Position numbers and translations under genes: made by a program. 64,000 nucleotides of DNA from NCBI GenBank assembly GCA_951406725.2, contig OX597816.1, positions 84,320,001-84,384,000 on the forward strand, given 5' to 3'. Positions 46,494-46,534 of the stretch are shown piece after piece. Position 1 is the stretch's first letter. Each line of letters begins with the position of its first letter. Under the pieces are notes generated by a model, which saw only the letters and a list, made by a program, of their open reading frames with translations, had not been told where the DNA came from and ran no database searches. This stretch comes from Octopus vulgaris (taxonomy: Eukaryota).

Positions 46494-46534
46494 CCATATT
46501 GATAAGAGGCAACCACCTCGAAACTAGTCTGTGG
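46494..46534 (+). ncRNA. Type I hammerhead ribozyme (U3:A8 variant), intact
   Basis: ccata|TTGATAA|gagg caacca cctc|GAAA|ctag|TC|tgtgg; predicted cleavage after 46529. Confidence 0.88.

Follow-up and report, generated by a model that had tools for sequence, protein, structure and literature searches.

U3:A8 hammerhead motifs in an octopus repeat that is most likely a non-LTR retrozyme, and a young sister subfamily with a C3·A8 core

The 64-kb stretch of octopus DNA analysed here (the window) carries two type I hammerhead folds with a U3:A8 core, in copies of a non-coding repeat, 358-362 nt long, whose tandem and inverted arrays are found throughout the genome. The feature belongs to a known class, most likely that of the retrozymes, and has a known core variant. 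The explanation that we hold with good confidence is that of a U3:A8 hammerhead motif in a decayed copy of a non-LTR retrozyme moved by a Penelope-like element, with rescue in trans as the likeliest account of B2, a related subfamily with a C3·A8 core. The B2 lineage, which lacks a Watson-Crick 3:8 pair, has retrotransposed repeatedly.

Scanning the two strands with a descriptor that left positions 3 and 8 unconstrained recovered exactly two hammerhead folds in the window, at the two TTGATAA cores where the earlier note had proposed them. The fold at 46499(+) reads CCATA TTGATAA GAGG CAACCA CCTC GAA ACTAGT C TGTGG, and that at 25692(-) reads GCTGCA TTGATAA AGGG CAAATA CCCT GAA ACATGT C TGCAGC. 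In both, three helices surround the core and the ends lie in stem I; U4, G5, A6, N7 and A9, G12, A13 and A14, the A15.1-U16.1 pair and H17 are all in place. The identity of the 3:8 pair is U3:A8, a published natural variant, rather than the canonical C3:G8. The bare TTGATAA heptamer is not enriched in the window (22 observed vs 29 expected). Loop II has 6 nt and starts with CAA in both copies, as the note had read it, and the stem I bulge that it described is also present; its sequence is TAC rather than CTAC, the C pairing with the distal stem. In a monomer, stem III would either consist of 2 bp around a 2-nt loop or be a single base pair capped by a palindromic tetraloop. Self-cleavage 3' of residue 17 is predicted for both folds, the parts of which are as follows.

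46484..46542, plus strand: type I hammerhead fold, subfamily A1 (descriptor scan, covariation)
46494-46498/46530-46534, plus strand: A1 stem I, with the distal stem I and TAC bulge beyond
46499-46505, plus strand: A1 core TTGATAA (U3 = 46499, A8 = 46504)
46506-46509/46516-46519, plus strand: A1 stem II, with loop II CAACCA
46520-46522, plus strand: A1 GAA, followed by the palindrome ACTAGT at 46523-46528
46529, plus strand: A1 C17, with the predicted cut at 46529/46530 from hammerhead numbering
46126..46184, plus strand: decayed hammerhead of the upstream tandem unit, 358 nt upstream, with core TTCATAA and a broken palindrome and cleavage triplet
25649..25707, minus strand: type I hammerhead fold, subfamily A2
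25698-25693/25661-25656, minus strand: A2 stem I, with the core TTGATAA at 25692-25686
A2 stem II AGGG/CCCT, minus strand, with loop II CAAATA
25668-25663, minus strand: A2 palindrome ACATGT, with C17 at 25662

The copy at 46494 is itself partly decayed: its sixth stem I pair is T·C, and the distal stem contains an A·C mismatch. The upstream neighbour of this copy has lost G5 and U16.1 and carries a GAC triplet. Since this sole tandem partner is broken and two stem pairs of its own have decayed, the 46494 copy is probably a fossil. A decayed hammerhead-like motif with a TTGAAGA core and broken stems also lies at 27348-27378 (+); it is similar to another set of matches, older and distinct, in which stem II has 5 bp.

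Each fold sits within a discrete insertion. Target duplications were checked at these two window insertions, which are bounded as listed here.

46128..46704, plus strand: one-armed insertion of ~1.6 units, period 358, 5'-truncated
46116..46127, unstranded: likely target-site duplication, left copy, 11/12 identical to 46705-46716
46705..46716, unstranded: likely target-site duplication, right copy, 12 nt with one mismatch
25488..26073, unstranded: two-armed (inverted) insertion with a one-unit minus arm (25844-25488) and a plus arm (about 25845 to 26073), the arms reaching outward to the two fixed 3' ends of the family
25473..25487, unstranded: perfect 15-nt target-site duplication, left copy
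26074..26088, unstranded: 15-nt target-site duplication, right copy, overlapping the AT-rich element end

The one-armed insertion terminates at the first of the family's fixed 3' ends, at about +208 counted from core position 3, and this array, the window's own, holds one intact core only. The A2 minus-arm unit and the A1 copy are 76% identical over 360 nt; judged by their sequences, the window copies are subfamilies A1 and A2 of one family. Elsewhere in the window, ORF fragments recognised by eye as like those of non-LTR retrotransposons or mariner-type transposases lie at 58743-60630, 61918-62523, 17221-18359, 4677-4997 and 63201-63485; the sole profile match among them, at 61918, is a weak zf-RVT below the cut-off.

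The unit loci that we fetched from across the genome sort into five related groups, A to E, which match one another partially at 67-76%. Units are spaced at 357-362 nt, with up to four head-to-tail units per arm and no ORF. The 3' ends of families A, B and C concentrate around two offsets, about +208 and +252 to +268. Of the family B ends 71/78 fall into one of two zones, either +204 to +215 or +252 to +263; the corresponding figures are 26/36 for A2, in two bins, and 10/11 for family C. These fixed ends mostly run into (TA)n, and 5' truncation is variable. The predicted circular minimum free energy of four units is -102 to -117 kcal/mol, against -80 to -98 for mononucleotide shuffles, which are a weak control. 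The B4 loci L114 and L116 hold the same dimer with identical flanks about 61 kb apart on one contig (C1), as a segmental duplication or an assembly duplicate would.

Non-LTR retrozymes are described as tandem units of 170-400 nt with type I hammerheads, expressed as circles; they depend on dimers when stem III is weak, and Penelope-like enzymes have been proposed for them (PMC7229834). The octopus repeat has a non-coding tandem unit within the 150-450 nt range and one type I hammerhead in each, and its copies are dispersed and lack an LTR, with target duplications at the two window insertions. An autonomous Penelope-like element would carry a reverse transcriptase plus GIY-YIG ORF between terminal repeats; none was found within or next to the window insertions, and a search with one reverse transcriptase query had no match in the first 30 loci. 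The 358-362 nt repeat is most likely an animal non-LTR retrozyme copied by a Penelope-like element. Among the sequencing runs listed for the unit, none is catalogued as RNA. Contigs of sequencing runs guessed to be RNA cover the unit, and cannot show strand, ends or level; the unit-to-unit joint that they contain is compatible with tandem DNA and a circle alike. A single B2 insertion has lost one base at the cut site in each of its two arms, but we discarded a ligation scar there, since indels were not enriched: among 204 events in 203 copies, 3 fell at the cut site against 3.2 expected.

A fragment related to the candidate helper family lies in the window, outside both insertions.

30567..31079, plus strand: decayed Penelope-like reverse transcriptase fragment

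The fragment has many relatives with long open reading frames, as judged from the 150 scored out of 10,842 candidates, and an ORF of 875-1091 aa is present in 16/16 of the larger helper regions fetched. These young, intact, Hydra-type relatives, with copies of 980-1090 aa, are the candidate helper family. Pfam returned nothing for two intact helper ORFs or for the window fragment, so that the Hydra-type clade call is based on motifs read by eye. The helper has its own hammerhead, a C3:G8 form with a long stem II, just before the 3' end (three ends read). A 15-nt end motif, CGCTTATA-N11-TTACTGT, occurs at family B's first fixed end and in 11/16 helper loci; by eye it was not found in family A, the window's own. 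The helper terminal repeat has no significant homology to any unit, local scores falling below those of shuffles, and was dropped as the unit's ancestor for want of a significant alignment. Just before family B's first fixed 3' end, the segment L139:1370-1465 reaches a contig depth up to about 20-100x that of the hammerhead part (4/4 runs). This excess indicates a segment common to a much more abundant repeat, possibly a helper-recognition segment.

The identity of the 3:8 pair was surveyed across the 2.8-Gb genome with patterns combining the core and GAAAC..GTC spacing, the reversed pattern serving as control. U3:A8 with U7 fixed gave at least 1350 matches (6 in the control). With position 7 free, C3:G8 gave 1270 matches (control 14), many belonging to other hammerhead families, C3·A8 gave 264 (control 13) and U3·G8 gave 161 (control 19); purine-3/pyrimidine-8 combinations were not enriched genome-wide (80 vs 104). 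When the core was left free, U3 and A8 were present in 100/100 A2 copies among the matches listed (of 445) and each in 32/33 A1 copies, with no C3:G8 in A1. TTGATAA itself, with positions 3-9 free, was kept in 92/100 A2 copies among the matches listed and in 28/33 A1 copies. Within the window's family the 3:8 pair is fixed, and its covariation lies between subfamilies. A pattern with a GAGR stem II, which takes in families B, C and A1, had 432 matches: 32 C3·A8, 64 C3:G8, 3 U3·G8 and, by subtraction, 333 U3:A8.

Several smaller regularities accompany these counts. The second base of loop II goes with position 8, CGA with G8 in 64/64 C3:G8 matches and CAA with A8 in 32/32 C3·A8 matches, an association that fits linkage and tertiary coupling alike; one A1 copy, L017, combines U3:A8 with CGA. 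At the base of stem II most hammerheads have G-C and A2 has A-U, and two families are mismatched there at subfamily level (D with U·U, U·A or C·A variants, E with A·A).

Covariation was assessed in an alignment of 20 hand-picked representatives from six sequence groups. Of the 18 pairs, 16 vary on both strands of the stem and two, both in stem III, are invariant; 90.6% of cells are paired against 70.8% in shuffles and 26-45% in slid controls; none of 500 shuffles was as high, a figure that is no probability, the rows being related and chosen by hand. The centre of the palindrome is self-complementary in 20/20 rows (UA 10, CG 8, AU 2), and the 3:8 pair is UA in 12, CG in 4, UG in 1 and unpaired in 3; the invariance of the other core bases is built in by the search patterns. 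Families A, C and D, subfamilies B1 and B3-B6 and both window copies have a Watson-Crick 3:8 pair, which is lacking in B2 and in some family E copies.

These data uphold several claims of the earlier note: the stems of the two window copies differ and still pair, the alignment of 20 representatives agrees, and the palindromic stem III is of the dimer type. Its statement that the helices covary between the two copies stands for the stems; the 3:8 pair does not covary between them, since both copies are U3:A8. It had rightly taken U3:A8 as a tolerated swap; as a novelty the variant is preceded by the natural U3:A8 covariation, already active in vitro, of Perreault et al. 2011 (PMC3088659) and by the ~1,300 U3:A8 motifs to which a Penelope-like element led in Schistosoma mansoni (Cervera and de la Pena 2014, PMC4209133). 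We found no passage on the 3:8 pair in the available part of PMC11014351. Searches for CUGANGA do miss the family, as had been anticipated, and the suggested comparison with Rfam hammerhead models came out negative. No hammerhead was among the Rfam matches listed for the window (150 of 216), which comprised microsatellite-driven miRNA matches and one snoRNA; none appeared at E<=10 in focused scans of 701 and 651 bases; and none reached the gathering score in nine loci. Since canonical C3:G8 sisters were among those loci, U3:A8 cannot by itself account for the miss.

The clearest departure from a paired core is found in family B. We aligned 98 copies and built a tree from the 79 with at least 280 nt, masking positions 3, 7 and 8 and loop II and rooting on the most diverged U3:A8 subfamily. 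All C3 subfamilies of family B form one clade (99.7/100), from which the U3:A8 subfamilies are set apart (100/100 on 78 rows, one duplicate having been dropped). Family C, which is next in relationship to B, likewise has U3:A8. The C3 clade holds canonical C3:G8 subfamilies together with the very young C3·A8 subfamily B2, which accounts for 27 of the 32 C3·A8 matches and occupies 19 separate insertions on 11 contigs. B2 copies differ from their own majority by a median of 0.56%, have intact stems, loop II (CAAATA) and palindrome, and span 312-1078 nt with the usual ends and arms. The 19 loci share no flanks (no flank pair at 95% over 150 nt), which excludes segmental duplication, and an assembly error is set aside by the 19 loci and by contigs with the exact B2 haplotype across positions 3 and 8 in three of four runs, one possibly the assembly's own sample. 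CpG decay of single copies was also rejected as the origin: B2 has its own haplotype, and no C3:G8/CTGATGA core with the B2 loop occurs among 67 G8 matches.

Given the spread of B2 to 19 sites, a Watson-Crick 3:8 pair is not required for spread, and a strict reading in which every copy is kept active by selection is weakened. The earlier note's inference that selection has maintained ribozyme function holds for the source lineages; the decaying window copies and the C3·A8 form at 19 sites do not fit it. We found no report of an amplified C3·A8 subfamily in a literature search, although Lunse et al. may list such variants. Two further occurrences of the mismatch are recorded. The unlinked B4 copies L141 and L199 share one sub-haplotype and are C3·A8, the other L141 arm having U3, as recurrent mutation or another small lineage would produce. 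In the older family E, C3·A8 is present in 7/28 copies, with 7/14 in one palindrome class vs 0/14 in the other (Fisher P 0.006, from copies that are not independent); these copies do not group together in a resolved way (5 changes; p-AU 0.166), and family E is a suggestive second, older case.

Within the C3 clade, C3·A8 likely preceded C3:G8. B2 keeps the outgroup state at five sites where all C3:G8 subfamilies differ (position 8, loop II, -148, -96 and +121) and shares derived states with only some C3:G8 subfamilies at three. Monophyly of C3:G8 is absent from the best tree and not rejected (p-AU 0.295), and the alternative groupings within the clade both survive (p-AU 0.295 and 0.093). The converse order, in which B2 is not a stepping stone but a C3:G8 lineage reverted by two CpG-type G-to-A changes, draws on the fact that the G8 and loop-II G separating B1 from B2 are both CpG sites, on the lowest divergence in B2 (mean 0.68% vs 0.9-1.4% for C3:G8) and on the best tree, which puts B2 beside B1a with weak support (56/78). 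Reversion nevertheless needs more steps and leaves unaccounted for the outgroup states at -148, -96 and +121, and two more C3·A8 copies, with loop CAATTA, lie near B1a. We consider it possible but somewhat unlikely.

These data allow us to propose a mechanism. Arrays would be transcribed, two hammerheads would pair through their palindromic stems III and cut after GUC, and a host ligase would close the monomer to a circle, on which the helper enzyme may start at two fixed internal points and circle more than once. The U3:A8 core could work because residue 8 probably supplies the general acid through its 2'-OH and not through its base; the 2'-OH of G8 has been put forward in this role (PMC6155905). 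Between subfamilies the 3:8 pair would change by single transitions, and the path in family B would most likely run U3:A8 -> C3·A8 -> C3:G8, with the mismatched stage spreading by itself. In the known dimer model one unit's core would face the GUC of the other. The palindromes of two units have a predicted pairing energy of -4.6 to -8.3 kcal/mol, and cross-pairing in stems I and III is 6/6 among B1-B4, compared with 3-4/6 and 4-5/6 between B1-B4 and family A. With stems I and III fully cross-compatible, B sisters could process B2 RNA, and the intact sister RNAs could cut the weak C3·A8 B2 RNA in trans. We offer tentatively the idea that the genome records a core-pair swap crossing a valley, in which the crippled C3·A8 form spread through trans cutting by its sisters. 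If true, dimer dependence would provide complementation and so allow the cores of retrozymes to drift, and this would explain why both transition-reachable Watson-Crick versions occur and purine-3 swaps are not enriched.

Rescue of B2 in trans, residual activity and copying of uncut multimers are about equally probable. Residual activity would mean that C3·A8 cuts well enough alone, through a C·A wobble and tertiary contacts, and needs no rescue. The intact stems, loop II and palindrome of B2 would allow this, tertiary contacts have been argued to offset weak cores (Perreault et al., PMC3088659), and the older family E also has C3·A8 copies. A pairwise mutational scan of one construct points the other way: only a G:C swap rescued the 3:8 pair, and the other single and double mutants near the core had low activity (PMC9901934). 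As only the G:C swap restored function there, U3:A8 activity depends on context. C3·A8 is moreover the minority state (32/432), and the family E copies do not resolve as a clade; we are doubtful of a self-sufficient C3·A8 core, while granting it a real chance.

If cutting is instead dispensable in a short burst, an uncut multimer or unopened circle would be the template and B2 a dead hitch-hiker. The points where copying begins lie downstream of the cut site, by about 180 and 225 nt, and not at it, the B2 ends and arm layout match those of B1, and the near-star shape of B2, with four copies identical to the majority, looks like descent from one source. Against this, the stems covary and purine-3 swaps are not enriched, which argues that cutting matters in the long term, and each unit of the B2 trimer has private changes, so that the trimer array is not the source; no source array was found for B2. 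This too is a minority reading in our judgement. In Xenopus, one of nine retrozyme dimers was active in vitro and eight were uncut (10.64898/2026.07.22.740005).

That the units are simply 5'-truncated terminal repeats of an autonomous Penelope-like element is very improbable: such elements are characterised by two-armed insertions, an extension at the end and type I hammerheads, and Xenopus retrozymes are related to Penelope-like terminal repeats (10.64898/2026.07.22.740005), but the octopus arms hold up to four head-to-tail units with no ORF, the window reverse transcriptase fragment has no match in the first 30 unit loci, and the 16 helper loci carry a different hammerhead with no significant homology to the units, in a comparison covering one helper family and loci that mostly extend 1.5 kb each side.

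The preferred reading, of a non-LTR retrozyme with a U3:A8 core moved by a Penelope-like element, has two consequences. CUGANGA descriptors and Rfam undercount animal retrozymes, since U3:A8 matches are about as many as C3:G8 matches at hammerhead spacing. Family B, in turn, provides natural units about 92-98% alike, with C3:G8, C3·A8 and U3:A8 cores and known copy numbers; it makes testable both the need of cutting for retrozyme spread and the path of compensatory change through a catalytic pair.

Among known systems, the covariation at positions 3 and 8 is identical to that of the U3:A8 hammerheads of Perreault et al. and of Schistosoma. The Schistosoma motifs, found with a minimal-hammerhead descriptor, are mostly single (PMC4209133), whereas the octopus has a canonical 6-bp/4-bp fold with a bulge and a 6-nt loop II, within a retrozyme unit. 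In the available portions of PMC3088659 and PMC4209133 we found no report of a spreading C3·A8 form. With Hydra-clade Penelope-like elements (Craig et al. 2021, 10.1101/2021.04.23.441226) the octopus unit has in common (TA)n insertion, tandem and inverted structures, end extension and a hammerhead; unlike them it is non-coding, and family B shares only a short end motif with the one family compared. The hammerheads HHR_Amex1 and HHR_Amex2 of the axolotl and those of newt satellites have a weak stem III with a palindromic loop and are efficient only as dimers (PMC7229834); dimer dependence is measured there and predicted in octopus, and the account of these hammerheads available to us mentions no 3:8 swap. 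At the base of stem II, octopus family D and HHR_Amex2 share a U·U mismatch.

Set against animal non-LTR retrozymes in general, the octopus units differ in being mainly U3:A8, with sister subfamilies that differ at 3:8, an amplified mismatch included, and in being known here from DNA, their circles being predicted. Family B has 50% GC, above the usual under-45-50% of animal retrozymes. The available text of PMC7229834 makes no mention of U3-A8, covariation, octopus, cephalopod or inverted arrangements. In all other respects compared the likeness is close: a tandem non-coding unit of 358-362 nt (350-390 in mussel, 330/350 in axolotl), one type I hammerhead per unit with a short palindromic stem III, no LTR, long target duplications, a predicted circle that is self-paired, and co-occurring Penelope-like elements.
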